Source: Candidatus Komeilibacteria bacterium
GTDB lineage: Bacteria > Patescibacteriota > Patescibacteriia > UBA1558
NCBI GenBank assembly: GCA_048538275.1
Contig: JBLYPW010000001.1
Location: forward strand, 38,244 to 102,243
Direction of reading: 5' to 3'
DNA: 64,000 bases
Both the position numbers and the translations under genes were made by a program. Within the stretch, counting starts at the first letter, position 1; every line of letters begins with the position of its first letter. The notes beneath the pieces are model-generated. The model was not told the DNA's origin, ran no database searches, and was given only the letters and a program-made list of their open reading frames with translations. Of the stretch, positions 10,610-62,943 are shown in pieces.

Positions 10610-12592
10610 TTATTCGGTTTTTTCTTGATAGACTTCCAGTATATCGCCTACCTGTATATGAGGGCGACCTTGATAGGTAATACCACATTGCTGCCCAGCT
10701 ATTACTTCATTGACGATTTCTTTATTGGCTTGTAGTTCATTTAATTTACCAAAGTCTATAGTTTCATCGCCGCGGGTAATCTTGACAGTTGTATTAGCTA
10801 TGACCTTGCCTTTAGTAACTTCGCCGCCCACGATCATGCTGTGTTTGTCTGTTTTAAAGATGGCCAAGACTTTAATTTCTCCCAATTCAACTCGCATGGT
10901 TTCTTGAGCTTTTATTTTGTCTAGTTCTGCCGCCACATCATCTAGCAAGTTATAAATGATATCATATTGATGAATAATTATTTTATTATCTAGCGCTAGT
11001 TGTTCGGCAGATTTTACTGGTTTAGTATGAAAGCTGATAAGCATAGCCTTACTACTGACGGCCTCTAAAATATCGACATCAGTAATATAGCCCAGGCCTT
11101 TTTTTATAATTTTTACTTGTGCCTTCTCGGTATTTAATTTGTTTAGAGCTTCTAAGATGGCCTCTTGTGAACCCACTACATCTGTTTTTAGTATAATGGG
11201 CAGAGTAGGAATAGAATCTTCCTCGCCGTCTTCCTGCCCGCTAACGGTTTGGCTATTATTGCTTTGTGGTTTCTTTTTGTTGGCTTTTTGTTTTTGTTTG
11301 AGTAATTTAGCGTCATTGATCACTTCCAATACATCGCCTACTACCGGAGCATCTTTTAAGCCGAGAATTTTTACTGGCTTGGCCGGCGGTACGCTTTGGA
11401 CGTCTTTACCATATTCATCCTTAATAGCTTTGATTTTACCAATTACAGAGCCCACTACGACATTGTCGCCGACGTGCAAGGTACCGGTTTGTACCAATAC
11501 GGTAGCTACTGGCCCTTCGTTTTTATCTTTATGGGCTTCAATGATAGTGCCGGCCGCCTCTCCAGAGGAGTCGGCTGTAAGTTCTTCCATATCTGCTACC
11601 AATAGTACCATTTCCAGCAATTCCTTGAGGCCGGTTTTGTTTTTGGCAGAAATGGGCGCGCAAATAGTTTTTCCGCCCCAATCTTCTGGTACCAAATTTA
11701 TTTCTGATAATTCTTTTTTAACTCTTTCTATATCAGCAGCGTCTTTATCAATTTTATTGATAGCAATAATAAAGGGTAAATTTTCTTTTTGACAAAGAGT
11801 AATAACTTCAATAGTTTGTGGTTGCAAACCGTCATCCGCAGCTACTACGATAATGGCGACGTCAGCGATTTTACTGCCGCGGGAACGCATGGCTTTGAAG
11901 GCTTCGTGTCCAGGTGTGTCTAGAAAAGTTATTAAACGATTGTCTAGCTCCACTTGATAGGCGCCAATGTGTTGAGTAATGCCGCCAGATTCCTGGTCAA
12001 TGACATTAGCCGTGCGCAAGGCGTCTAATAATCTAGTTTTGCCATGGTCAACATGCCCCATAACAATAACAACCGGCGGTTTAGTTTCTTTACCGTGTCT
12101 TTGTTGTACAATTTCTTTTAATTTAGCTTCTTGTTGGTCTGATTGGGCAGCGGCCAACTCTTCGTCGCTTAGCCTTTCTACCTTTACTCCCAAGTCTTCG
12201 CCTAAAATACTGGCAGTATCAAAATCAATTGCTTGATTTAGAGTGGCCATAATGCCATTTTGCATTAATTCTACCATTAATTTATTGACGGGAATTTCTA
12301 ATCGTTCTGCAAATTCTCTTACCACAATGGTGTCAGGAATATGAATTGTTCTTTCCAATTTTTTATCATCTTTTTCTTTGTCGGCATCCAGCCGAACTTC
12401 TGTGACTTTAGCTGCTTCTTCCGCCATTTTATTTTTACGTTTGTACTCGCTCCAAGCAGCGATAATTTTATCTACTAATTTATCGTTTACTTTAATAGCT
12501 TTTTTACCAATATCAAAACCAAGCTCCGGTAGTTTTTCCAAGAGCTCATTTGTTGGTACTTTCAGACGTCTGGCTAATTCAGTTACATTCAT
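10610..12592 (-). CDS. infB: translation initiation factor IF-2
   Basis: GTPase motifs GHVDHGKT and DTPGHEAF, NKID, and the IF-2 C-terminal domains. Confidence 0.9.
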   Translation of the reverse strand: MNVTELARRLKVPTNELLEKLPELGFDIGKKAIKVNDKLVDKIIAAWSEYKRKNKMAEEAAKVTEVRLDADKEKDDKKLERTIHIPDTIVVREFAERLEIPVNKLMVELMQNGIMATLNQAIDFDTASILGEDLGVKVERLSDEELAAAQSDQQEAKLKEIVQQRHGKETKPPVVIVMGHVDHGKTRLLDALRTANVIDQESGGITQHIGAYQVELDNRLITFLDTPGHEAFKAMRSRGSKIADVAIIVVAADDGLQPQTIEVITLCQKENLPFIIAINKIDKDAADIERVKKELSEINLVPEDWGGKTICAPISAKNKTGLKELLEMVLLVADMEELTADSSGEAAGTIIEAHKDKNEGPVATVLVQTGTLHVGDNVVVGSVIGKIKAIKDEYGKDVQSVPPAKPVKILGLKDAPVVGDVLEVINDAKLLKQKQKANKKKPQSNNSQTVSGQEDGEEDSIPTLPIILKTDVVGSQEAILEALNKLNTEKAQVKIIKKGLGYITDVDILEAVSSKAMLISFHTKPVKSAEQLALDNKIIIHQYDIIYNLLDDVAAELDKIKAQETMRVELGEIKVLAIFKTDKHSMIVGGEVTKGKVIANTTVKITRGDETIDFGKLNELQANKEIVNEVIAGQQCGITYQGRPHIQVGDILEVYQEKTE

Positions 12593-13899: not shown

Positions 13900-13976
13900 T
13901 TATTATCCTGCTCCCGTAGCTCAACTGGATAGAGTGTCTGGCTTCGGACCAGAAGGTTGTAGGTTCGAATCCTGCC
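13900..13976 (+). tRNA. tRNA-Arg (anticodon TCG)
   Basis: Hand-folded cloverleaf: acceptor GCTCCCG/CGGGAGC, anticodon stem TCTGG/CCAGA with loop CTTCGGA, T-arm GGTTCGAATCC, and an encoded CCA. Confidence 0.85.
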
Positions 13977-14441
13977 GGGAGCACCACCACGTCATAACTT
14001 GCTTCCGCTGTTTCATGCCCCTGAACAAGTCAGGGTCATTCCACTGCTCATCAAGTTATTCCTTGATGCTCATTGCTTAACTCCTCGACAAGCTCGGAGC
14101 CCAAGCAATGCGCATGGCACTCACTTTTCAACTTGCTTCCGCTTACCCACTTTATTTGAGTCTTTAATTTATAAAACAGAATCTATTTTAAGACTCTGTT
14201 TTTTTGAAAGAAAACGTCGCCTAACGTTTCGGCATATCTGATGTCCGCTTTGCGGATATGGATGGAGGCTTTTGTATAAAAGCCGTAACCAGATATGCCG
14301 TGTTATATGATGTACATGTTTTCCTTTTGATTTGCGATAGCAAATCGCTCTTAAAAAAGAATCTGATTTTGTTTTTCCGTTTTGGGCGAAGGGCAGAGGG
14401 GAATTAAAGGGGTGAATGCCCGAGCCCAAAACACCTTACAA

Positions 14442-16046
14442 TTAATTTGAGCTAAATCCTTTTGTATTTGCTGCTTCAAGCGCGCTAAATATAATTTGCA
14501 TGTCTGATTCAAATTGTTCTTGCGTGATATTTCCAGCAACTTCTTTTGCGTATTCTACTTTTTGACTATTTTCTATTTCATCTTTAGATTTTTTATATTC
14601 ATTTGGATAATATTCCTCAAGTGATTCAACTGCTAATTCAAAAATTTGCCCGTTTGTAAATAAATATGGATAGCCAGCTTTAAATTGGTCATATTTTGTT
14701 TGTTGTTCGCTGTTAGGTTTGTCTATTAGAACAACTGCTTTGTCTTTATATATTGGGTTGTCCGATCCAGCTAGTGGAACAAATAATTTATGAACAGCTA
14801 ATAAACTTGGTTCTTGCTCGTCAATATCTCCACCAGCAAATATTATTTTAATTCCTTTATATTTTGTTGAGTAAAAACGCTTAATAACGATGTTAATAAA
14901 CTCAAATTCACTTTTTCCCTCGACTATTATAAAATTTCTAGGTAAGAGTAAGTCAGACGGACTACCACCCAATAGATCAAAGATTACATCAATTTTTTCT
15001 GCATCACTTACTTCTGTTATTTGGGTAATTTTATTTAATTTTTCAACCTTATGAATTTTTTGACAGTCATGATTCTCTACCACTAAAACAGACGAATGCG
15101 TGTTAATGAATACTTGGTCTGTATCGCAAATATCAAGTAAAGCTTTTTTTAAAGCTCTTTGAGCAGAGGGGTGCAGATGTAATTCTGCCTCATCAATTAA
15201 AAAGAGAAATGTGCCACCGCCACTTTGTTCTTTTCTATAATCTGCAAAAGCTTGAATAATAGATAGCATTATCGCCCTTTGCATTCCGTCGCCTTTATCT
15301 TCAGCTTTTGTTTCAATCCCGTCATCCACGGTTGTGTCAAAGCTTTTTAAAAGATCATTGAAATTTGGCGGATTTACTCCAAACTTAACTTTTGTGCCAT
15401 CTGGAAATTGTTTTTGAAGATAAACCTCAACTTTCGTACCCAGTTTATCAAGCTCTTTTCTAACTTCTGACGAATCGCTATCAAATAATTTTGAAAATTG
15501 AGTTTTAAAATCAATGTAATCTTGTGAATTGTCAATAATAGCGGTTAAAACTCCGGATAACATTGTTCCTATGGGATTCTTGTCTTTGTATTTTGAAACA
15601 TCATCAAGGCGTATCTTTGTATTCACATATTCTAATTTCGGTAAAAATTCATTTATTGCAGTATCTAATCCTGACGGATTACCTTTGTCTTCAGCACCAA
15701 CAAGATATTTTCTTTTATGATCTACGCTAGTTTTTAATACAGAAAAGTTAGTATTGCCGCCAAGCATTGTTCTAATTTTAGTTTTATTTGCATCAGTTGT
15801 TAGTTTTTCAATATCAGATTCAATCACATCTTCAAAAAAAATTTCTACGGAAATTTTATTTGATTCTTCTTTATTGAAATGTTCATCTGCTTTGGATGAT
15901 TTCGAAGTATAAAACCAATCTATTGATTCAAAAAAATTTGTTTTACCATGATTGTTCTGACCGACAAAAACTGAAAATTTATTCGGCAAAACTTCAACCT
16001 CTTGAATTGAACGGTAATTTTTTACAATAATTTTTGATATTCTCAT
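14442..16046 (-). CDS. OLD-family ATP-dependent endonuclease (ABC-type ATPase + Toprim)
   Basis: N-terminal AAA_15/ABC ATPase (VFVGQNNHGKTNF Walker A; LFLIDEAELHLHP Walker B/D-loop). C-terminal OLD-type Toprim (IIVEGKSE ... GGDID). Confidence 0.7.
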   Translation of the reverse strand: MRISKIIVKNYRSIQEVEVLPNKFSVFVGQNNHGKTNFFESIDWFYTSKSSKADEHFNKEESNKISVEIFFEDVIESDIEKLTTDANKTKIRTMLGGNTNFSVLKTSVDHKRKYLVGAEDKGNPSGLDTAINEFLPKLEYVNTKIRLDDVSKYKDKNPIGTMLSGVLTAIIDNSQDYIDFKTQFSKLFDSDSSEVRKELDKLGTKVEVYLQKQFPDGTKVKFGVNPPNFNDLLKSFDTTVDDGIETKAEDKGDGMQRAIMLSIIQAFADYRKEQSGGGTFLFLIDEAELHLHPSAQRALKKALLDICDTDQVFINTHSSVLVVENHDCQKIHKVEKLNKITQITEVSDAEKIDVIFDLLGGSPSDLLLPRNFIIVEGKSEFEFINIVIKRFYSTKYKGIKIIFAGGDIDEQEPSLLAVHKLFVPLAGSDNPIYKDKAVVLIDKPNSEQQTKYDQFKAGYPYLFTNGQIFELAVESLEEYYPNEYKKSKDEIENSQKVEYAKEVAGNITQEQFESDMQIIFSALEAANTKGFSSN

Positions 16047-16052
16047 ATTGAA

Positions 16053-16880
16053 TTAATAACCCAAGGCAAGCTGATCAAGCATATCGGGTCCCTTTTCTCG
16101 ACCGACTTCCTGATAAATCTCAAGGACTTGCTCATATGTTCCGGCTCCACCCACCAAATCCCAAAATTCTTTACCAAGTAAAACCTCGTCTTCCAAATCC
16201 ATGTAATTCACAACGAAACTATGCTTATATGTTGCTTTATTTACACCATAGGGGTTATAGGCAGTGGCGTAATATGCTTTTGCTTTTGGATATTGTTTGT
16301 AAGTTATCCCGTGAATTTGTAGCAACCGTCCTGTTGCCTCTAAACATTGTCCTTTATTCGGTTTTGGGCTTTTTATCTCAATAAAAAGTTCCGTGCCGTC
16401 TTTTTTGACAATATATAAATCAGCAATGCTGGTTCTATCTGCACTTTTCCCATCTCCAGCAATTTTAATAATTTCTTCGACAAATTCAGGATAACTTGAT
16501 TTCATTCCACCTGTGCCAATTTTGCTTGTGATTTCTTCAATTCGTTTTATAGCCTTAAGTGAGATTTGACCAGTAACACGATGTCCTCGCTCTGCGTGTT
16601 TGTGATTATCAAGTGCGATAAGACGAGCACACTCTTCAAATGTCGTGCCAAGTTTTGTAGAAAATGACCTTTCAAATTCCGTTATCGTTAGTAGTCCGTC
16701 TGGCAATAAGGATTCGTGGAACGGTTTTAAATCGCCTTTCTTTGATTCTTGGCGCAATGGCCTTAGTTGCTTAGGGTCAAAACCGTTGTCAGTTTTCTCT
16801 TCTACCATTCCTTGAATAAATCCTTCAAGGTAACCTTTAATTAATTGTCTGGTGTTTTTTGTAATCATATTTTTTGCCAA
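16053..16880 (-). CDS. putative type II restriction endonuclease (PD-(D/E)xK fold)
   Basis: ADLYIV...ELFIEIKSPK fits the PD...(D/E)xK catalytic motif. Its 3' end overlaps the start of the adjacent DNA MTase by 16 bp, implying an operon. Confidence 0.5.
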   Translation of the reverse strand: MAKNMITKNTRQLIKGYLEGFIQGMVEEKTDNGFDPKQLRPLRQESKKGDLKPFHESLLPDGLLTITEFERSFSTKLGTTFEECARLIALDNHKHAERGHRVTGQISLKAIKRIEEITSKIGTGGMKSSYPEFVEEIIKIAGDGKSADRTSIADLYIVKKDGTELFIEIKSPKPNKGQCLEATGRLLQIHGITYKQYPKAKAYYATAYNPYGVNKATYKHSFVVNYMDLEDEVLLGKEFWDLVGGAGTYEQVLEIYQEVGREKGPDMLDQLALGY

Positions 16881-18058
16881 ATTAAAATACTTTCATAAAA
16901 TGCGCCATTGCGCCGTCCTGTACGACGATTAACATGGCGTTCAACCCTCCCGATTGATTTAAACCCAACATCTGAGGGATTATATAAATTATGTTTATCG
17001 TTAACAACGATAGCCATAATTCCGTTTTTAGTCATATAATTGCGTGTGTGCAATAATACATCATTTATACCTTTTATATATTCTTTTTTTGCATCTTCTG
17101 AAGATCCTCTTTTTGCTGGTCCAATTTCTCTGGTTTCGTTATTTTTTAACCCAAGTAATTCATAAGCGTATTTATGCTGATCATGATAATCAATTAAACC
17201 AATGTAAGGTGGTGATGTAAAAACCATATCAATATCTTTCGGCAAGATTACTGTTCGTGAGTCATCATGAAATATTTTGACATCTGCTTTAGTTCTAATT
17301 TTGTTAAATTCTTTTACTCGTTGTAGAGCATCAATAGAATAGCGACTTAAAAATTTATAAGCTTCTTGAACAGGCGTACAAACTCTTCTATGTTTAAAGC
17401 ATTTATATGGTGTTTTCTGTGGTTTTTTAGGGAAGTCTAAATCATAATGCGTAACTAATCGAGCTGAACGTGCCGAGCGAGAAAGAATGATTTTTAATAA
17501 ATCTTGATATTCATAGTCTTTTATCAAACGCAAGTAGCAAAGAAGTTCTTTTTTTGTCCTATCTGCAAACCAGTCGTTAATATATTCATTTTTTGTAGCG
17601 AAAAGTTTATTAACTTTTTCATCATTTAAAAAATCTTTTTCGTATTTCGACATTCGTTTTAAGATATCACGAATTTCCTTATCTAAAAGTTCAATATCAT
17701 ATTTATCAGTTTTAACCTTAGAAAGCAGGGTGTTAAAAACAGAAATATCTGTGCCGATTGAATCAATTCCTAGTGCATTTGCTTCAACAAGTGTTGTTCC
17801 TGACCCACAAAAAGGATCATAAACTAGTTTGGGATTGAATTTACGCAAAAAAATTTCTGCCATTTGAGGAATAAATTTTCCCATGTATGGATGAAGTCGA
17901 TGAACGTGCTTTGTTCGCGCTATTTCCGGTAAATCATTTTCCCGCCAATTTAAATTAAGTGTTTCTAAATCTGTATCAAAATTAATGCTTGAAAAATTGG
18001 TCAACGGAGTTTGTTGATATTGTTTAGCGATTTTTTGAGCTACTTTATTATCGTACAT
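16865..18058 (-). CDS. DNA amino-methyltransferase (N6-adenine or N4-cytosine), alpha-type motif order
   Basis: Motif I DPFCGSGTT near the N-terminus and motif IV TSPPY about 200 aa later (N6_N4_Mtase family). The SPPY variant hints at m4C but does not prove it. Confidence 0.7.
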   Translation of the reverse strand: MYDNKVAQKIAKQYQQTPLTNFSSINFDTDLETLNLNWRENDLPEIARTKHVHRLHPYMGKFIPQMAEIFLRKFNPKLVYDPFCGSGTTLVEANALGIDSIGTDISVFNTLLSKVKTDKYDIELLDKEIRDILKRMSKYEKDFLNDEKVNKLFATKNEYINDWFADRTKKELLCYLRLIKDYEYQDLLKIILSRSARSARLVTHYDLDFPKKPQKTPYKCFKHRRVCTPVQEAYKFLSRYSIDALQRVKEFNKIRTKADVKIFHDDSRTVILPKDIDMVFTSPPYIGLIDYHDQHKYAYELLGLKNNETREIGPAKRGSSEDAKKEYIKGINDVLLHTRNYMTKNGIMAIVVNDKHNLYNPSDVGFKSIGRVERHVNRRTGRRNGAFYESILIWQKI

Positions 18059-18231
18059 ATTTTATTGCCTGAGTAAATGTATTAGTATTGTACTTCATTT
18101 CCCCTTATAAATAAATCGTTTTCGTAGCGGAGCGGAGAAAACACCTTATTCCCCTCTATAATTAAAGAAAAAGAAATTTGAAAATTTTTTAAAACAATTG
18201 GGCGTTAGCCCAAAAAAGAAAAGGAATATTT

Positions 18232-18333
18232 CATATAACATCAGGGATATACGAAGTTTTTCTGGAGCGGAGCGGAAGAAATTTGGGAAATTTGCGAGCC
18301 GAGCAAATTTCCTCATAAGCCCTGTTATACGAG
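18232..18333. repeat. GC-rich long imperfect palindromic element, copy 1
   Basis: catataacatcagggatatacgaag ... cctcataagccctgttatacgag, with internal ggaaatttgc/gcaaatttcc arms. Related to the copy at 19409-19495. Confidence 0.5.
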
Positions 18334-18397
18334 GGTGAGCGTAACGAAGTGGAGCGAAAGCGCAGCGTCCCCTTGCGTATGACGCAGGAGCCAGCCG

Positions 18398-19333
18398 TTA
18401 TCTTTTACACACAGCAAGAGCATAAGTATCTTTAGAATCAGAATATATTTTCACACTAGAAAAGAACTTCTCAAGTATTTTTTTAAACTCGGGTTTGGTA
18501 TATTTATAGGATATTGCAGTAATTATAACATCTCCTTTTTTAAAATTTAAAGTTCTTCCGAGATGTTTAATCGTTTTGTCTTTTTTCAAAATATACAATT
18601 CTTCAATCCTAGAATTGACAAAACGAACATCATAAGCAATATCATGTTTTGTTAAACCTAATTGTTGTGGTATCTGAACAAGCCAATTATTAATTATGGT
18701 GTCTTTGTATTCTTCTGTCCAATCTTCATGACCATTTGTTAGACCATTACCAATCAGAAGAATATCATCTTTGTTCATGCTTGTTTTTATTCCATGCAAT
18801 ATGTCCTCTCTGTCAAAATTCCCCAAGGTATTGCCCAATAACATCATAAAATGAGTTTCAAAGCCAGTCTCTCTAAAAAGAGGAGTAATATTATTAAGAT
18901 TTTCAAAGTCGGAAATATTCCAACGAAATTCCAAAACTTCTCCGACTTTCATTTTACGAATAGTTTTGGCGGCTTTTGAAACCATGTAAGAACTAATATC
19001 AATAGGGCAATACCTGATTTTCATGTGCTTTGCTAATTCATGAATAAACAGAGAGGCTTTTTGTCCGTCGCCACAACCTAAATCAATGATATTGCATGAA
19101 CTTTTTGGTAAAGCATGAACAAAATCTTTCATATTTTGTTTTATCAAAGACACCTCTTTCTCAATAATGGATTTCTTGTATCCCTCAGTCTTACTTAAAT
19201 CAAGAAAACCCTGGGCTTGTTTAGGAGTCAGATACCACAACTTAGAATCTGCAACATCCCAAACCCGAGTTTTTCCCTCGAGTTTATATCCTCTTTTGAG
19301 AAGTTCTTTGAAAATTAAATCATTGATTTGCAT
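18398..19333 (-). CDS. EgtD-like (Methyltransf_33) SAM-dependent small-molecule methyltransferase
   Basis: IIDLGCGDGQKASLF (motif I), LGNTLGNF, DDILLIGNGL and the C-terminal YALAVCKR parallel EgtD's LVELGSGTSEK / LGSTIGNL / GDSLLLGTDL / LSLAVR. The annotated ORF start at 19417 runs into the repeat element; the in-frame ATG at 19333 (MQINDL...) is more plausible. Confidence 0.5.
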   Translation of the reverse strand: MQINDLIFKELLKRGYKLEGKTRVWDVADSKLWYLTPKQAQGFLDLSKTEGYKKSIIEKEVSLIKQNMKDFVHALPKSSCNIIDLGCGDGQKASLFIHELAKHMKIRYCPIDISSYMVSKAAKTIRKMKVGEVLEFRWNISDFENLNNITPLFRETGFETHFMMLLGNTLGNFDREDILHGIKTSMNKDDILLIGNGLTNGHEDWTEEYKDTIINNWLVQIPQQLGLTKHDIAYDVRFVNSRIEELYILKKDKTIKHLGRTLNFKKGDVIITAISYKYTKPEFKKILEKFFSSVKIYSDSKDTYALAVCKR

Positions 19334-19408
19334 AATAAGTGAAAATATATTCTTTATAATATAAATCTTGCGATTGAATTTATTTAGGCTGGCTCCGAGT
19401 AATATGTC

Positions 19409-19495
19409 GTATAACATCAGGATTATGAGAAGTTCGCGAAGCGAATTTGGGTGGAGAAGTCTGCAAGACTTCGTAACCTCATAATCCTTGTTATA
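19409..19495. repeat. GC-rich long imperfect palindromic element, copy 2
   Basis: cgtataacatcaggattatgagaagttcgcgaagcgaa ... cctcataatccttgttatat; the outer arms are mutually complementary. Homologous to 18232-18333. Confidence 0.5.
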
Positions 19496-19615
19496 TTCCC
19501 CGTAGGGCTGAAATTTAGTGCAACGTCCCGAAGGGAAATTTCAGAGTCGTCGTGTCTATCTAAAAAATTTGAATTGCCGCCGCCTTTTTTGTTTCTTTTT
19601 TTCTAAAAAAGAAAA

Positions 19616-20980
19616 TTAGGGTGCGAGTTTTTTTGTTTTAAAAATTTTATCATAAAAAATAATCATTAATATTCCTAAAGGAGAAGTTATACCAAAGGTA
19701 CTTTCTTTCAAAAAAGGAAATAAAACTAATAGTAGGATTGTTGGTATTAGAATTGAATAAAAACTTGCGTTTGAAGTAGTTTTTTTAGAATAAATTCCTG
19801 CAATAATTGGCGGAACAAAAATTAAAGCAAGATAAGTAACAAGTAATGATAAGGTAATAATATTTGGTATTAAAAATGCAAATAAAAAACCAATTGTTCC
19901 AAATGTTGCTGTTATAAGTCTAGCATACAGCATTTTCTTTTTTGAATCGAGTTTACTTTTATCAAATAATCCTCTGTAAATAATCGCCGAACCACCAACT
20001 AATAAACTATCAATTGAGGACATAATAACAGCCAGAATTGAAGCAAAGCCAATCCCAACAAGAGAAGGAGGTAAAATTTTATCCATTAGTAAAAATATTG
20101 CAAATTCTTGTTTGATTCCTGAAAGTAAAACTGATGAAACCAGTCCTAAAAATAAAACAATAAATCCTAACAGAATTACAAATGGAATAGAAAGATAAAA
20201 AGAGTTTTTGGCAGTTTTTTCATTGTCAGCGGAGAAAATCCTTTGCCAATGAGTTGTATTTCCAAGATATATAAATCCACTTAAAACAATAACGCCTATC
20301 ATCCAACCAATACCCCCAAACCCAAAAGGATTTAGGTGTCCTTGAGGAACATTGGATAATAAATTTGAAATTCCTCCAACTTCTGAATAACCAATAAAAG
20401 CTAATATTAAAAAAACTATTAAGATAATCCAAAATTGGATAAAATCTGTAATTATATCAATTTTTAAACCGCCAATTGTAGTATATAGAATAACAACAAC
20501 AGCTGATAAAATTAAAGCGAGTTCATATTCTAATCCAACTAAAACAGAAGCCAAAGAAGCAATAGCTATTGCTTGAACTCCTATCCAAATAGTGAGTAAG
20601 AATATTTGTAGGATTCCTGTTAAAATTTTATTTCTTCTATCAAATCTCTTAGCGAAAAAATCTACAATTGTGTGAGCATCATATTCATCACCTATAGTTT
20701 TTATTTTTTTAGCCATAATACCCAGAATTATCATTCCTGCAACAAATGAGATAGGCAACGCTAAACCATAGGAAATTCCTGAATTATAAACTTCTGAGAC
20801 TATGGCAACAACTCCCCCAGCTCCAACAATTGTAGCAACAGTGGAAAAAGTCATAAGCCATAAACTTGTTTTTTTGTTATTCAAAAAATAAGCATTTAAC
20901 GATTCTTTTCTTGAGAAATACCATGCAACTCCAAACATTAATGCAAGATAAACAAATAAGATTATTAGTGTTGTATTCAT
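19616..20980 (-). CDS. sodium:solute symporter (SSF) family transporter
   Basis: Multi-TM protein with the SSF N-terminal signature (...NAYFLNNKKTSLWLMTFSTVATIVGAGGVVA...). Composition is extremely AT-rich compared with its neighbours. Confidence 0.65.
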   Translation of the reverse strand: MNTTLIILFVYLALMFGVAWYFSRKESLNAYFLNNKKTSLWLMTFSTVATIVGAGGVVAIVSEVYNSGISYGLALPISFVAGMIILGIMAKKIKTIGDEYDAHTIVDFFAKRFDRRNKILTGILQIFLLTIWIGVQAIAIASLASVLVGLEYELALILSAVVVILYTTIGGLKIDIITDFIQFWIILIVFLILAFIGYSEVGGISNLLSNVPQGHLNPFGFGGIGWMIGVIVLSGFIYLGNTTHWQRIFSADNEKTAKNSFYLSIPFVILLGFIVLFLGLVSSVLLSGIKQEFAIFLLMDKILPPSLVGIGFASILAVIMSSIDSLLVGGSAIIYRGLFDKSKLDSKKKMLYARLITATFGTIGFLFAFLIPNIITLSLLVTYLALIFVPPIIAGIYSKKTTSNASFYSILIPTILLLVLFPFLKESTFGITSPLGILMIIFYDKIFKTKKLAP

Positions 20981-21288
20981 ATTATAAATTTAAAGAATAA
21001 ATGTATTTATTAAATTTTCTAAAAACTCGCACCCTTTTTATTATATCCTTTGCGATAGCAAAGACAAATTGTGCGAAGCACTAAGGCGGCAATTCAAAAT
21101 ATTAATTTTCACGACGATTGAATATAACTGGTTATTATACGAACTAATGATCGGATAATGTACTAAATTGGTATATTATAGTAACTAATCCTTGGTTTTG
21201 GTAGCATTAAATTACACCCAGATTATAACCTGCTGGATGGAATCGCGCAATTTAGCTAGCCAGTCATCAATGTTCCTATAATGATGAG

Positions 21289-22131: not shown

Positions 22132-22271
22132 ATTTTGAGGTTATCATAAAATAACTATTTTGTAAACTATTAGTTTACTTTTATATGTAAATTACACTAT
22201 TTATTGTTAATTTTGAGTTTTTGTATAATAATCAGACATTAGTTATTTAATAATCAAATAGGAGGTCCAAA

Positions 22272-26361: not shown

Positions 26362-26414
26362 CCATTTCATTCACAATTGGCCGCTAGGCGCAATTGTCTT
26401 ACGACAATTTATCT

Positions 26415-27617
26415 ATGAAAGACCCGATTTATGAAGAGATAGTTTCCACCACAAATTTAGCTGAGGCTTATTTTGAGATAGGTGAGAAATTTATATTGGA
26501 AGGGAAGTCTGGTTATAGCGGTTTGGATGGTTTGCAGATACAAGAATTTGATACTAATTTAGAAAAGAATTTACAAGAAATTCGTGCAGATTTGATAACA
26601 TTGGCACCGCTCATGCCTTTAAATTGCAGCCAAATTCCTAAAAAAAATGGAAAACTGCGAGATATATATATTTTATCTTTGCATGATAGGATCAAATCTC
26701 AGGCAATAATCAGAGTGCTAGAACCATTATTAGAAAAGGTTTATTCACCTTTTCTTTTTTCGTATAGGTCTACGCACCCTACACATCTAGCGGCTCGTTC
26801 AGCAGTGCGCCGTTATCATCGGTATTTTGGGAAAGATTATATTTTATTGACGGATGTTGAGAAATATTTTGATAATATTGATAAAAAAATTATCATTAAT
26901 AAATTAGAGAAATTTGGCTTGCAGTCAGCTACCTTGAGTTTAATTCAATTGTTTCTGGATCAGAAGATTTTAAGGAATAATAAGTTGCTTTCGTTAGATA
27001 GAGGCTTAATGCAAGGCGTTCCTTTGGCGGTGTCATTAGCTAATTTCTATCTCAATGAAATTGATTGGTTAATTGGCAAAAAAGTGTCTTTTTATAGGCG
27101 AGTTAGTGATGATATTTTAATTATGGATAAAAGCGAGCATAAAGTTCTGGAAATTTATGATTTGTTACAGATTGAGTTAGATAAATTGGGTCTAAATATG
27201 CACCCGACAAAAACCAAATTAATGAAAAATAGCGAATTGTTTGAGTATTTAGGGTATTTATTTCATAATAATAAAGTGGCCATCGCTACTCGGAGCCAAG
27301 AAAAGTTAATTGCCAAGTTGGAAGCAGAACTACATTATTATCCCATTGCGCTAGACAAAAAAATTGAACGATTAAGGCAAAAAATATTTACCGGCGCAGA
27401 TTCTATTTCAGCTTACCTGCAAAATACTATTCGTCATTATAGGTTTGTAGATGATTATGATCAGATAAAGGAAGTTTCAGAGAAAATTTATCATATATTA
27501 ACTAGGTATTTTTTTAAAACTTATACGGCGCGTCATCGTCGGCGGACAAAAAATATTTGTCGTGATTTGGGCATGCCATCATTTTATAAGATGTTCGTAA
27601 AATATCATCATGAATAA
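26415..27617 (+). CDS. stand-alone reverse transcriptase (group-II/retron-like RT motifs, no maturase/endonuclease domains)
   Basis: RT motifs read off the translation: IPKKNGKLRDIYILS (motifs 1/2), SYRSTHPTHLA, LLTDVEKYFDNIDKKII (motif 3), RGLMQGVPLAVSLANFYLNEID (motif 4, QGxxxS..LaN type) and FYRRVSDDILIM (motif 5, catalytic xSDD). The track ORF begins at a TTG; the first ATG is at 26415. Confidence 0.75.
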   Translation: MKDPIYEEIVSTTNLAEAYFEIGEKFILEGKSGYSGLDGLQIQEFDTNLEKNLQEIRADLITLAPLMPLNCSQIPKKNGKLRDIYILSLHDRIKSQAIIRVLEPLLEKVYSPFLFSYRSTHPTHLAARSAVRRYHRYFGKDYILLTDVEKYFDNIDKKIIINKLEKFGLQSATLSLIQLFLDQKILRNNKLLSLDRGLMQGVPLAVSLANFYLNEIDWLIGKKVSFYRRVSDDILIMDKSEHKVLEIYDLLQIELDKLGLNMHPTKTKLMKNSELFEYLGYLFHNNKVAIATRSQEKLIAKLEAELHYYPIALDKKIERLRQKIFTGADSISAYLQNTIRHYRFVDDYDQIKEVSEKIYHILTRYFFKTYTARHRRRTKNICRDLGMPSFYKMFVKYHHE

Positions 27618-29310
27618 TTTACATAACATCGTGAACTTATATACTAAAAGACAAAAGCAAAAACAGGACTTTGGTTATTTTGGTTGGCAAAATTATCACC
27701 GGGAGTATTTGTTGGGTTTTTGGAAGGCGCAAAAGCAACAAATTCTTAGAGTCGGGTGGTTAAGTTTGGCGGCTATTGTTATAGAAGTGACAATTTTTTT
27801 TCTGGCCCGGGTGGTCATTAGAAATTTATCATTGCAATTGAGCATTATAAGCCTATGGTATGTGGCGGCGTTTTTGGTAGTGGCGGTGATAATTTATTTA
27901 TTACTTAGTTATTTCAGTATTTTTTATCAAAAGAGACTTTTGGTTGATTTATTAAATGATTTAAGAAAGTTATGGTTTAAGATTGTTTTACGACGACCAA
28001 TATTGGCGTCGGATAGAGAGGAAAAAGATAATGCGATTGCCAAAGTATCTTATCATTTTTCTTTGCTAAGCATGGGTTTTAATAGTGCCTTAGTGGGAAC
28101 GTGGCAAGCTATTTTAATTGTCATGGTGTTGTTATTATTATCCGCTTTTGTTAGCTGGACAATGTTTATATGGAGTATAATAATTATTATTTTTGCTGTA
28201 ATTTTTGCTATCGTCGCTTATAAAATAGCTTTTATTTATGTGAGTAGAGAGCAGACATTTTATACTCAGATTATCAAACATATGTTGAAAGTTTTTTATG
28301 ACTTGGAAAATCATCAGCTACATAACCGCGAGGCAATGGCTTTGCAGAGGTTGAATAAGTTGGTAGAGCTTGATAGTTGGTTTCGGGTGCGTAGAGATAT
28401 TTGGATGAAATTTGGCGCTGATATATTATTTGTTTTGATATTGTTGGGCGGGGCAATTTTGTATATTGTTCAGCTTTATTGGCCACATATTTTTAGGCAG
28501 GAAGCGGCCAGTTTATTTTTATATGGTGTTATAGCAACGTATAGCGTGCGTTTATTTTATCTGAGTTTGCGGGCTGGTCTTTTTTATGTGCCATTGCGTT
28601 TGGGTTTGTGGTTGTCAATACCAGAAAAAAAGCCGGCAAAAATAAGAATTGTAGAAGAAATAAAAAAAATATGTTTTCGTTCGGATAAGTTTAGGTTATT
28701 TGATGAGGATAAATATTTTTGCAATCAGTTTTGTTTTCAACAAGGTCAAAGCTATTTAATCGTTGATAAAAATAGAGACCGTTTGGATGCCTTGGCACGG
28801 ATTTTTGCTGGCATGGCCTTGTCTAGGGCCAAGCCATGGATTTTGTCGGTTAATGGGCAACGTTATTTATATAAGGATTATTTTAAATATCACACACCAA
28901 ATTATTTGATTTCCGCGAACTGGCGATTTCAGGGCACGGTGGGAGATTTTTTATTACCTCAGGCAGAAGATAGTATTTCGCCTAGTGCAGTGACAAAGAT
29001 ATATGAACAATTGGCGCCATATAATGCGTGGCATTTTTTGTTTAAAAAAAACAAGGTCTTGGCTCAAAAAATAGATTTTGTTGCTTCTTCTATTGAGCAA
29101 AGAGCTTTATTACAAATTGCCTACGCCATCATTCACCAAGTGAATTTTGTTATTATTGATAGTAGTTTGGTTGATTTGCAAGGCAAGCAATTTGTAGCGG
29201 CGATACGATTGTTGCGACAGAAAGTAGCCAAATGTATTATTATAATATTATCAACGGCTGATAACGCCATTTTAGATTATGAAGAAAAGTTCTCACTTAA
29301 AGAAAAATAG
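27610..29310 (+). CDS. ABC exporter-like half-transporter (TMD+NBD) with a catalytically degenerate NBD
   Basis: Six N-terminal TM helices, then an NBD-like region that is colinear with ABC domains. Walker A is replaced (LIVDKNRDRLDAL instead of GxSGSGKST). The signature is degenerate (ASSIEQRALLQIAYAI vs LSGGQRQR). Walker B/catalytic Glu is lost (VIIDSSL vs LLDEATS). The start overlaps the RT stop by 8 nt. Confidence 0.55.
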   Translation: MNNLHNIVNLYTKRQKQKQDFGYFGWQNYHREYLLGFWKAQKQQILRVGWLSLAAIVIEVTIFFLARVVIRNLSLQLSIISLWYVAAFLVVAVIIYLLLSYFSIFYQKRLLVDLLNDLRKLWFKIVLRRPILASDREEKDNAIAKVSYHFSLLSMGFNSALVGTWQAILIVMVLLLLSAFVSWTMFIWSIIIIIFAVIFAIVAYKIAFIYVSREQTFYTQIIKHMLKVFYDLENHQLHNREAMALQRLNKLVELDSWFRVRRDIWMKFGADILFVLILLGGAILYIVQLYWPHIFRQEAASLFLYGVIATYSVRLFYLSLRAGLFYVPLRLGLWLSIPEKKPAKIRIVEEIKKICFRSDKFRLFDEDKYFCNQFCFQQGQSYLIVDKNRDRLDALARIFAGMALSRAKPWILSVNGQRYLYKDYFKYHTPNYLISANWRFQGTVGDFLLPQAEDSISPSAVTKIYEQLAPYNAWHFLFKKNKVLAQKIDFVASSIEQRALLQIAYAIIHQVNFVIIDSSLVDLQGKQFVAAIRLLRQKVAKCIIIILSTADNAILDYEEKFSLKEK

Positions 29311-30775
29311 TTTTTTATTGTCTAGGCAAAAGAAAATTCTGGTAAAGAAATTATTTTTTGTAATTATTATTTTAGCCTGCATTATTTATATTTTACATTT
29401 GGTAGGAAATAGGGCATGGCCTTGGTTAAATGATAAAAATTATAATCCATTGATCACTAAGCGCATTAATGCGCCAATAGATTTCAATATTTTTTTCAAT
29501 GATGTGGTGGGAGACGATGTTTTGTCTAGTAGGATTATAGCTGCTATTGATAGCGCCAGATCATCTATCAAAATAGCTATGTTTGCTCTTACCTCGCCAC
29601 AAATAATCAGCGCCCTGGATAGAGCTGATAAACGCGGCGTGATTATAAAATTAGTCTATGACGAAAGCAATCGCAACCGTTATGCTGTGGCGCTGGGTAA
29701 ATTTTTTGATACTGGCATGGCTAGAGGCGCAGGAGTGGATAATCCTAAGCATAATATTGGTTATTATATGCATCATAAGTTCATTATTATTGATGAAGGG
29801 TTTGATGATGAACAATTGATTACGGGCAGTTTGAATTGGACTGATTGGCAACAACAGTATGATCCTAGTTATTTTATTATTACCAGGCGGCCAGAGATTA
29901 TCAATATTTACAATCAAGAGTTTATGCGTCTTTGGCGTGGGCAATCGGGTGTGGCCAAATTGCGAGATAATGATTATCAGCCATGGATTGGCGAGTTTAA
30001 GTATAATAATGCGACATTGGAATTGTGGTGGGGGCCAGGATTCAAAGAAAATTCTTATCGTCAAAGATTATTGGATCTTATCACTGCCGCCACGCAAAGT
30101 ATTGAAGTAGCAATTTGGCAACTGACCGATCGTGATATCGCGCAAGCACTTTTGGTCCAAGCTACGAAAGGGGTTTCGGTAGCCATCGTGACTGATGATT
30201 ATACTTTATGGTCACGAGATAGTGCATTTCCTTATTTGATTAAGCAAAAGGAGCAATTAGGCTTAGATAATTTAATAATAGCAAGTGATAGTTGGCGCTC
30301 AGTTGATCTTGATAATATTTATAAAATAGTTGGCAGGGATTTCTTTAATTCTTATTTTCATCGTCATGGTGCGCTGATAGACAATAAAATTTTAGCGCTT
30401 GGAACAGCTAATTGGTCATATAGAGGGTTCTGGAGTAATGATGAGTCTGGTTTGGTGACGGATGATTTTGATATGATTCAGGCTTGGCAGCAATCGTGGG
30501 ATTATCACTATCATAGTTTACAGGCACAAGAGCTACATTTTTTTAAAAACGAACAAGTTTTAACTTTGGGTGATAAATTTGATCAATTTTATGGAAAAAA
30601 TTTATTAGCAATTTGTGAGCTGAGCGGTGACTCGGTGAAGCCCTTGATCTTGAGTCAGACCATTTTAGCTGATTTAAATCAAAAAATTATGTTGAAGGGA
30701 GATTGTCCAAATGTGGTGCAGGTGTTTATTTATGATGACAATAATAAATTATTGGGTGCTGGTCGAGCCAATTAA
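29279..30775 (+). CDS. membrane-anchored phospholipase D (HKD) superfamily protein, two HKD-like motifs
   Basis: A single N-terminal TM helix. HKD motif 1 is HHKFIIIDEG...GSLNWT. The second motif, HRHGALIDNKILALGTANWS, is degenerate with K replaced by H. The start overlaps the preceding gene by 32 nt. Confidence 0.6.
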   Translation: MKKSSHLKKNSFLLSRQKKILVKKLFFVIIILACIIYILHLVGNRAWPWLNDKNYNPLITKRINAPIDFNIFFNDVVGDDVLSSRIIAAIDSARSSIKIAMFALTSPQIISALDRADKRGVIIKLVYDESNRNRYAVALGKFFDTGMARGAGVDNPKHNIGYYMHHKFIIIDEGFDDEQLITGSLNWTDWQQQYDPSYFIITRRPEIINIYNQEFMRLWRGQSGVAKLRDNDYQPWIGEFKYNNATLELWWGPGFKENSYRQRLLDLITAATQSIEVAIWQLTDRDIAQALLVQATKGVSVAIVTDDYTLWSRDSAFPYLIKQKEQLGLDNLIIASDSWRSVDLDNIYKIVGRDFFNSYFHRHGALIDNKILALGTANWSYRGFWSNDESGLVTDDFDMIQAWQQSWDYHYHSLQAQELHFFKNEQVLTLGDKFDQFYGKNLLAICELSGDSVKPLILSQTILADLNQKIMLKGDCPNVVQVFIYDDNNKLLGAGRAN

Positions 30776-36783: not shown

Positions 36784-36865
36784 TTTTTTTGATTTTTTGT
36801 TTTTTATTTTGGGAGATTTTTTTAACCTCTACTAGTAGTTTAGCACACTTTTTTACAAAAGTCAA

Positions 36866-37142
36866 CCCCGTTAGAGGTTTAGAGGGTTTTTTAACCTATT
36901 TTTACTATAATTTTGCTTAGGTTTTGTGTTTAGTGGTTTTTGTTGCCATATATTATATATGGTGTAGGAAAATGTATTTATAGACCCAAACCTCTAACGA
37001 GGCAGACCCCGTTAGAGGTTTAGAGGGTTTTTTAACCTATTTTTACTATAATTTTGCTTAGGTTTTGTGTTTAGTGGTTTATGTTGCCATATATTATATA
37101 TGGTGTAGGAAAATGTATTTATAGACTAAACTTCTCATGAGG
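36866..37142 (+). mobile_element. tandem pair of ~136-bp MITE-like elements with 15-bp terminal inverted repeats
   Basis: Unit A is 36866-37002 and unit B is 37007-37142, separated by 4 bp (caga). The two differ at only a few positions. Each starts with ccccgttagaggttt and ends with aaacctctaacgagg (degenerate to aaacttctcatgagg in B), which is its reverse complement (14/15). Each has an internal TATAAT-like box. Confidence 0.55.
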
Positions 37143-62735: not shown

Positions 62736-62943
62736 TTTTGACATCACAACCATTTATCCCGGCATGAAAAGGAGGGTTCATCATGACCTGACAATGCAAT
62801 TTATTCAAAATTGGGAAAAAAGGGCAACATTAATGTTGCCCTTTTTATTTTGATTTCACTATGGAAAGACTAAAAGGTTGATCTCTTGACACAGCATGAT
62901 TTTGGTAGTATGCTATACGCTGATTTATATATTTTAGGTTTTT

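Follow-up and report, generated by a model that had tools for sequence, protein, structure and literature searches.

The 14-nucleotide (nt) motif TTTGCGATAGCAAA occurs twice on the plus strand of a 64,000-nt stretch of the genome of a Candidatus Komeilibacteria bacterium (GCA_048538275.1, contig JBLYPW010000001.1, positions 38,244 to 102,243, in the following referred to as the window), namely at 14331-14344 and at 21049-21062, where its two copies enclose an island of five minus-strand open reading frames (ORFs) with low G+C content. This island is made up of three minus-strand gene cassettes of the integron type and resembles a CALIN, i.e., a cluster of attC sites lacking an integrase. On the basis of sequence comparison we regard it as settled that the two motif copies are parts of two independently mobile cassettes and not cassette junctions. 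They bracket the island because the cassettes to which they belong, one carrying a sodium:solute symporter gene (SSF) and the other restriction-modification (R-M) and OLD-family genes, are the first and the last in the array. The motif itself is probably a structural DNA mini-hairpin of the C-GNNA-G type that forms on the bottom strand of cassette ends. The features of the region are given below as window coordinates, strand and description.

13910-13986, plus strand: tRNA-Arg(TCG) gene, a core-genome landmark at the distal end of the array
13987-14218, no strand assigned: hairpin-rich spacer from the 3' end of tRNA-Arg to attC-like site A, read by eye
14219-14308, minus strand: attC-like site A (plus strand GCCTAAC...GTTATAT; 90 nt; z -6.6/-7.2; 101 bits)
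14225-18238, minus strand: cassette X, comprising genes for an N6/N4 DNA methylase (16865-18058), a TdeIII-like restriction endonuclease (16053-16880) and an OLD-family AAA_15 ATPase (14442-16046) plus attC-like site A
14329-14346, plus strand: site 1, mini-hairpin GATTTGC-GATA-GCAAATC (containing the 14-mer at 14331-14344) in the 3' non-coding tail of cassette X
18198-18213, plus strand: mirror mini-hairpin TTGGGC-GTTA-GCCCAA, which occupies the mirror-image position of site 1 within the start module of cassette X
18233-18330, minus strand: attC-like site B (plus strand ATATAAC...GTTATAC; 98 nt; 68 bits)
18239-19414, minus strand: cassette Y, comprising a gene for an EgtD-like (Methyltransf_33) methyltransferase (18398-19417) plus attC-like site B
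19409-19496, minus strand: attC-like site C (plus strand GTATAAC...GTTATAT; 88 nt; z -5.9; 94 bits)
19415-21127, minus strand: cassette Z, comprising a leader, the sodium:solute symporter gene (19616-20980, Pfam SSF), a 3' module and attC-like site C
21040-21067, minus strand: sigma-70-like promoter match TTGTCT-16-TATAAT (10/12, a consensus match only), its spacer filled by site 2
21048-21063, plus strand: site 2, mini-hairpin CTTTGC-GATA-GCAAAG (containing the 14-mer at 21049-21062) in the 5' leader of the SSF cassette
21115-21140, no strand assigned: array-start site tgaATATAACtgGTTATTATAC, a short R''/R' palindrome without L boxes, with the crossover between 21128 and 21127

The closest known counterparts of the array are integron gene cassettes with attC sites and CALIN arrays (IntegronFinder; PMC4889954, PMC9024848); integrons have also been described from archaea (PMC9668308). 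An attC site is an imperfect inverted repeat of about 57-141 nt with an R'' box of the form RYYYAAC and an R' box of the form GTTRRRY, in which structure is conserved over sequence. Sites A, B and C, which divide the gene blocks of the island, are repeats of this kind: they have RYYYAAC...GTTRRRY ends and a common two-stem fold while their sequences diverge, with compensatory changes in 11 of 36 pairs. An attC site has extrahelical bases and an unpaired central spacer when its bottom strand is folded; the three sites share a 2-3-nt bulge in one arm between the R and L stems, a geometry unlike that of canonical attC sites, and their assignment to the minus strand rests on gene order and loop type. 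The assignment as attC-like is based on the boxes, the fold, the junctions and a covariance model (R1) built from the three sites themselves, which matches homologous sites in the related loci L155, L167, L172 and L175 and detected no further site in the window. Site A is homologous to the site that follows the OLD gene in L236, and homologs of site C follow SSF in L175, L167 and L172. Short array-start sites equivalent to tgaATATAACtgGTTATTATAC are likewise located at the array starts in L155, L172 and L239.

The cassette boundaries were established by comparison with other Patescibacteria contigs, on which homologs of the SSF protein with 86-97% identity are encoded. At the 5' junction (21127) the DNA is alignable from exactly (G/A)|TTATATTC, i.e., (G/A)TTATATTCAATCG, in five independent contexts and is unrelated upstream thereof, while at the 3' junction (19415) it is alignable through the hairpin up to ...CCTGAYG|TT in four of five contexts and then diverges. 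As the SSF junctions are constant across contexts, the cassettes extend over 19415-21127, 18239-19414 and 14225-18238. The G of a GTTRRRY box immediately precedes each cassette, which terminates in its own attC-like imperfect hairpin. The first bases of a cassette complement its own R'' box, as is the case for TTATATTC/GAATATAA in the SSF cassette, and this pairing co-varies, being TTATATG/CATATAA in cassette X of the window vs. TTAGCTG/CAGCTAA in L236. A reading of the inverted cassette ends as terminal inverted repeats of a transposon (a miniature inverted-repeat transposable element with cargo) was considered and rejected as less economical than a long palindromic recombination site that integration splits, neither a transposase nor a target-site duplication being present. 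A side observation concerns the methyltransferase ORF of cassette Y, the first ATG of which (19415-19417) straddles the cassette junction such that its G is the G of the R' box; either the start codon of the EgtD-like gene is partly supplied by the site of the preceding cassette, or the true start is located downstream.

Both copies of the 14-mer lie within these cassettes. Site 1 is positioned 23 nt from the R'' box of site A in the tail of cassette X, a conserved end module that stands behind different cargo in L155, L172, L236 and L239. The start module of the same cassette, homologous to those of L155, L172 and L236, is an inverted copy of this tail with about 65% identity. When the circular junction of cassette X was modelled, the bottom strand was predicted to form one long stem with the attC-like core in its middle and site 1 as a side hairpin (-59.6 kcal/mol). 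The leader of the SSF cassette measures 146 nt, and site 2 within it is 65 nt away from the junction and precedes the ATG of SSF by 68-81 nt. L167-L171 each carry the exact 14-mer a single time at this same leader offset, and therefore site 2 travels with the SSF cassette. The two ends of this cassette also constitute inverted repeats (19490-19632 vs. 21128-21021), in which site 2 is aligned to a small palindrome in the opposite end. An earlier reading of the sequence alone had proposed a recombination or att-like site as one candidate role of the motif and had held that it brackets the island almost exactly. The island is indeed foreign and bounded by site-specific recombination sites, but these are the ATAAC/GTTAT boxes of the attC-like hairpins at the junctions 14225 and 21127, whereas the motif copies are located 106 and 65 nt inside the array in two different cassettes and thus bracket it roughly. 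Nor do they form a boundary pair elsewhere, as the five loci L167-L171, which represent two other contexts of the SSF cassette, carry a single copy.

With regard to its build, the motif is not the perfect palindrome that it was first taken for. Its reverse complement is TTTGCTATCGCAAA, which differs at two positions, and the motif is an imperfect palindrome, an inverted repeat with arms of 5-7 bp around a non-palindromic 4-nt center, the asymmetric GATA. The extended forms have 7-bp arms at site 1 and 6-bp arms at site 2, and the two copies are oriented as direct repeats. Their coordinates and the absence of any other copy were confirmed for the window, the part of the host genome that the motif counts cover, even when two mismatches were allowed. 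That two chance occurrences of a 14-mer would be very unlikely, as the sequence-only reading had argued, is wrong as stated, since the window contains 39 maximal direct pairs of at least 14 nt and 58 inverted 14-mer pairs, the latter counted per 14-mer so that longer repeats score repeatedly. When the question is confined to the two flanking non-coding spacers (14309-14441 and 20981-21288), the probability of a common direct 14-mer is about 0.001 (3 of 3000 Markov-1 simulations with spacers of the same composition, a post hoc test), which supports the notion that the motif is non-random and belongs to the end regions of the island. The generalized motif TTTGC-N4-GCAAA is not enriched in the window, also when near matches are included, and is absent from 166 Patescibacteria loci around homologs of PilT and of a 280-amino acid (aa) ORF situated to the right of the island. 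In IMG/VR, the extended 16-mer has 59 matches and the 18-mer one, all in unrelated and mostly coding contexts and at about the level expected by chance.

Several lines of evidence point to a nucleic acid hairpin rather than to a pair of protein half-sites, namely a compensated stem in L236, a loop-only change in L175, mirror hairpins and strand bias. The OLD protein of L236/L237 is 92% identical, and there the slot of site 1 reads GTTTTCT-TATC-AGAAAAC as opposed to GATTTGC-TATC-GCAAATC in the window, i.e., three pairs have been swapped with compensation, none without, and the loop has been kept. In the leader of L175, which encodes a 90% identical SSF homolog, the loop alone has changed from TATC to TTTC (bottom strand GAAA). 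The mirror slot of site 1 contains, on the other strand, TTGGGC-TAAC-GCCCAA in the window, TTGGGC-TATC-GCCCAA in L236 and TTGGGC-TTC-GCCCAA in L172. The plus strand of the window is the bottom strand of the cassettes, and read on it the loops have the sequences GATA, GTTA, GAA and GAAA, in most cases with a closing C.G pair. Six perfect hairpins with a loop of the type C-G(N)NA-G are present on the plus strand of the window vs. 1.1±1.0 in simulations, and four of the six fall within the approximately 1.4 kb of non-coding DNA of the island. Across eight arrays, G..A-loop hairpins are found 36 times on the bottom and 11 times on the top strand, triloop cases being strand-ambiguous because TTCG (UUCG) on the opposite strand is also a stable loop. 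It is the bottom strand of attC that recombines. The apex of site C holds two further mini-hairpins, TTCGC-GAA-GCGAA and GAAGTCT-GCA-AGACTTC.

Sequences of this type have counterparts among the extra-stable mini-hairpins of DNA, of which GC-GAA-GC and GC-GAAA-GC are the classic examples; d(GCGAAGC) and d(GCGAAAGC) were reportedly characterized by Hirao and colleagues. Judged by their letters, GC-GATA-GC at sites 1 and 2 and in the start module of L236, GC-GAAA-GC in L175 and GC-GAA-GC in L172 and in site C would belong to the same type, whereas one homolog, in the tail of L236, differs in being closed by T.A.

Some observations weigh against the mini-hairpin interpretation. Both hairpins are weak by nearest-neighbor energies (single-stranded DNA folds of -6.5 kcal/mol for site 1 and -5.3 kcal/mol for site 2, with z about -2.6 to -2.7), fold and promoter predictions alike being energy or consensus models. 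The homologous tails of L155, L172 and L239 lack the hairpin and contain the half-site GCAAAT only, and in the SSF leader of L172 (86% identical SSF) the palindrome is broken without compensation and both promoter hexamers are degraded too. The mini-hairpin is therefore dispensable or lineage-specific. The pooled covariation table is biased in so far as its sequences were chosen as hairpins, the unbiased comparisons being those of the window with L236 and of the SSF leaders. Finally, structure by itself does not account for the exact 14/14 match between modules that are otherwise non-homologous; the identical 14 nt may stem from common descent of a small module, from short-patch conversion or from a binding protein that both have in common.

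If the mini-hairpin belongs to an extended palindromic recombination region of the cassettes, it would fold when the bottom strand becomes single-stranded and might then assist or insulate the correct folding of the neighboring attC-like site. Site 2, located within the promoter spacer of its own cassette, could in addition affect expression. Single-strand folding and any influence on recombination or transcription are proposals in this scheme, while the comparisons do show the membership in cassettes, the junctions, the joint movement of site 2 with its cassette and the covariation of the hairpin.

A shared operator, which had been suggested as the other candidate role of the motif, is an unlikely but not negligible alternative. 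A dimeric DNA-binding protein would recognize TTTGC-N4-GCAAA at both sites, repress the SSF promoter at site 2 and also bind at the other end of the array. The position of site 2 agrees with this idea, as it fills the 16-nt spacer of the best promoter-like match, the sole 10/12 match in a spacer directly upstream of a gene, here SSF; L167, L169 and L175 have retained the palindrome together with both promoter hexamers, and an exact 14/14 identity in two unrelated contexts would be expected of a sequence-specific binding site. The altered arms in L236, on the other hand, fit a hairpin and not a conserved half-site, site 1 has neither an in-register promoter-like match nor a downstream gene, and the arms are broken in L172. 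The lack of enrichment of the general motif in the window and its absence from the 166 other loci likewise speak against it, the upstream region of the SSF homolog in L029 is devoid of the motif, and no regulator is encoded in the island. The 280-aa ORF next to the island was tried as the regulator, since its N-terminus appears winged-helix-like by eye and weak matches to LacI effector domains were obtained, and was dropped because its homologs are not linked to SSF. It is a core gene, and its homologs occur in unrelated core contexts together with divergent small membrane ORFs.

It is improbable, though conceivable, that the motif is devoid of function and that two unrelated small palindromes in AT-rich, hairpin-rich spacers became identical by chance. 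The 39 direct pairs in the window show repeated 14-mers to be common, the homologous tails of L155, L172 and L239 do not contain the motif, which has also decayed in the SSF leader of L172, and the tail modules of L155 and L172 already hold the half-site ATTTGC/GCAAAT, so that a local inverted duplication could have yielded site 1. Against this explanation stand the probability of about one in a thousand for the two spacers concerned, the agreement of the two hairpins in their loop and in their strand relative to cassette direction, and arguments for constraint, namely the compensation in the L236 stem and the excess of C-GNNA-G hairpins with its strand bias.

That the 14-mers are attL/attR core repeats left by integration of the whole 6.7-kb island, or a target-site duplication, is contradicted and has next to no probability: the direct repeats do bracket all five ORFs and the island does adjoin the tRNA-Arg gene, but site A of cassette X lies outside site 1 and the SSF junction 65 nt outside site 2, the 14-mer is single in L167-L171, it is not part of the tRNA, and neither the island nor the remainder of the window encodes a tyrosine recombinase, an integrase or a transposase. 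Accordingly, the island shares with tRNA-linked genomic islands the low-G+C foreign DNA beside a tRNA gene and a direct repeat near each end, but it differs from them in that the repeats lie inside the array and are not derived from the tRNA, an integrase is lacking and the whole is assembled from cassettes that are each mobile on their own. Cassette order can thus produce, as a by-product, a direct repeat at either end of an island. An RNA element, i.e., an intrinsic terminator or a stabilizing hairpin in cassette transcripts, is highly improbable as well, for although site 1 is situated in the 3' untranslated region of the OLD operon and the mirror hairpin 18198-18213 was flagged as terminator-like, neither motif copy is followed by a T-run on either strand or was flagged in the terminator scan, site 2 is upstream of the predicted transcription start, and the sense-strand loops UAUC, UUUC and UAAC match no known stable RNA tetraloop.

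While recombinase genes are missing from the window, they accompany related arrays. L155, L169 and L236 each encode a recombinase of 273-281 aa adjacent to and divergent from the array, and in L167 one is found at a distance of 5.5 kb; the four proteins are mutually 35-51% identical. They are closest to archaeal XerA structures, their alignment with VchIntIA ends at about residue 228, and with 235.9 bits they do not reach the cutoff of 265 for the integron-integrase profile TIGR02249, whereas XerA_Arch is passed. By sequence, the recombinases beside the related arrays are thus XerA-like and lack the additional domain specific for IntI. The array in L169 (7702-17365) comprises about nine cassettes beside a 273-aa XerA-like recombinase and carries genes for SSF, isochorismatase, SET, epimerase, APH, UbiE methyltransferase, EamA and GNAT as cargo; its junctions have a dif-like core, e.g., CCTCATTTAA|CAGGGC|TTAAATGAAAT, and its SSF cassette has lost the greater part of its hairpin.

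When the present arrays are set beside integrons and CALINs, they agree in consisting of promoter-poor gene units that each end in an imperfect inverted repeat of 88-98 nt with RYYYAAC/GTTRRRY boxes, in the junction at G|TT, in the complementarity of the cassette start to its own R'' box, in unrelated cargo with one cassette recurring in different arrays and positions and, among the relatives, in the divergent placement of array and tyrosine recombinase with a simple site beside it. They differ in the short recombinases without the IntI-specific domain, in a complementarity of start and end that reaches 30-140 nt past the R boxes, and in the extra C-GNNA-G mini-hairpins that flank the sites.

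Mobile modules based on Xer/dif constitute a second group for comparison and include the pdif modules of Acinetobacter plasmids, IMEX elements and the folded attP(+) of CTX phage. Their recombination site has 28 bp, with two 11-bp inverted arms and a 6-bp center. Likenesses are the XerA-like recombinase beside related arrays, a candidate for action on the sites, and junctions that appear dif-like in some cases, with arms of 8-11 bp, a 6-bp center and the pattern ATAA-N6-TTAT, e.g., GGGGAATATAA|CAAGGA|TTATATTCAAT in L169; one arm of each hairpin resembles it as well. Each hairpin is comparable to CTX attP(+) in being composed of two dif-like half-structures in inverted orientation, with a bulge. 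On the other hand, the two arms of a hairpin differ in their spacing (6 nt vs. 8-9 nt), ATAAC and GTTAT are separated by as little as 2-4 nt at array starts, and the present cassettes are arranged in direct and not in alternating orientation.

Based on these comparisons, we tentatively raise the possibility, in which we place less than even confidence, that Patescibacteria operate an integron-like platform for gene capture via short XerA-like tyrosine recombinases without the IntI-specific domain, with a long multi-hairpin palindrome as recombination site. Such a site would comprise the attC-like core together with start and end modules in inverted arrangement, which carry numerous C-GNNA-G mini-hairpins on the bottom strand, the 14-mer being one of them. 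The cassettes would circulate among distantly related Patescibacteria, with 86-97% identity of the encoded proteins. A search of the accessible literature for integrons or CALINs in Patescibacteria/candidate phyla radiation bacteria yielded nothing specific. The 14-mer in itself is a minor feature, but tracing it exposed precisely bounded mobile cassettes in a Patescibacteria genome; they recur in other members of the group and carry transporter, methyltransferase and R-M plus OLD defense genes. Recognition of folded attC sites by integron integrases is considered to depend on the IntI-specific domain. Should a XerA-like recombinase run the system, the integron principle would extend to episymbiotic, genome-reduced bacteria, and the arrays would offer a natural test case for the action of a simple Xer-type enzyme on hairpin substrates.

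The cargo of the cassettes deserves some remarks in its own right. Homologs of the SSF symporter (19616-20980) with 65-70% identity are annotated in DPANN archaea (Woesearchaeota, Nanohaloarchaea and Nanoarchaeota) and occur across Patescibacteria, a distribution that, judged from protein similarity, suggests cross-domain exchange among episymbionts. The OLD-family AAA_15 gene, 88-92% identical between genomes, is joined by overlap to differing R-M partners, i.e., to the TdeIII-like enzyme and the N6/N4 methylase in the window (14442-18058), to a HaeIII-like enzyme and a C5 methylase in L236 (5057-8605) and to a HinfI-like enzyme with HNH and Bro-N domains in L239 (4200-8605). It looks as if OLD were a conserved module and the R-M systems were swappable inside one cassette frame. 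In L114, a small HTH_XRE controller-like ORF (12217-12417) precedes a 77% identical homolog of the methylase; the R-M cassette of the window is without it.

On the left the island is flanked by genes for RNase Y, YmdB, ClpP, DHH, RbfA, IF-2 and PilT and on the right by genes for RuvB, a Na/Ca exchanger and cytochrome b5. Both flanks are syntenic with another Komeilibacteria genome (L002), where the intervening region spans about 2.3 kb vs. 9.7 kb in the window. G+C content is 0.30-0.34 for most of the island (0.376 at 16001-17000) vs. about 0.36-0.43 in the flanks. In relatives, PilT is followed by tRNA-Arg, tRNA-Lys and then variable genes, among them a homolog of SSF with 69.5% identity in one case and the 77% methylase homolog in another. 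The tRNA-Arg(TCG) of the window is solitary, while relatives pair it with an adjoining tRNA-Lys(CTT); in an Rfam scan of the window, the tRNA alone was matched. The spacer between tRNA-Arg and site A (13987-14218) contains a direct repeat, AACTTGCTTCCGCT, at 13996 and 14130, several hairpins and a terminator-like hairpin at 14173-14205, and is probably what is left of degenerate cassettes or attC sites. An empty site in a sister strain was not found, the best hits of PilT-based scans being 71% identical among GTDB genomes and 69% in JGI metagenomes, and exact-protein look-ups of window proteins yielded no relative useful for an empty-site comparison.

Further features were noted in the window beyond the array. 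The divergent spacer between the 280-aa ORF and a 175-aa membrane ORF contains a near-perfect 17-bp palindrome, GTAAACTATTAGTTTAC (22162-22178), which is a candidate autoregulatory operator. A second block of low G+C content (26394-30775) encodes a reverse transcriptase that is group-II-intron-like or resembles reverse transcriptases of defense systems, a 566-aa protein without family match and a two-domain PLD-like protein with DrmC-like matches, and is possibly a defense island. At 36865-37126, a non-coding tandem duplication of about 141 bp is present, visible as exact repeats 75 and 45 nt long that lie 141 nt apart. A perfect hairpin with a 13-bp stem, AAAAAGGGCAACA-TTAA-TGTTGCCCTTTTT, is located at 62817-62846 with A/T runs on both sides and is probably a bidirectional terminator.

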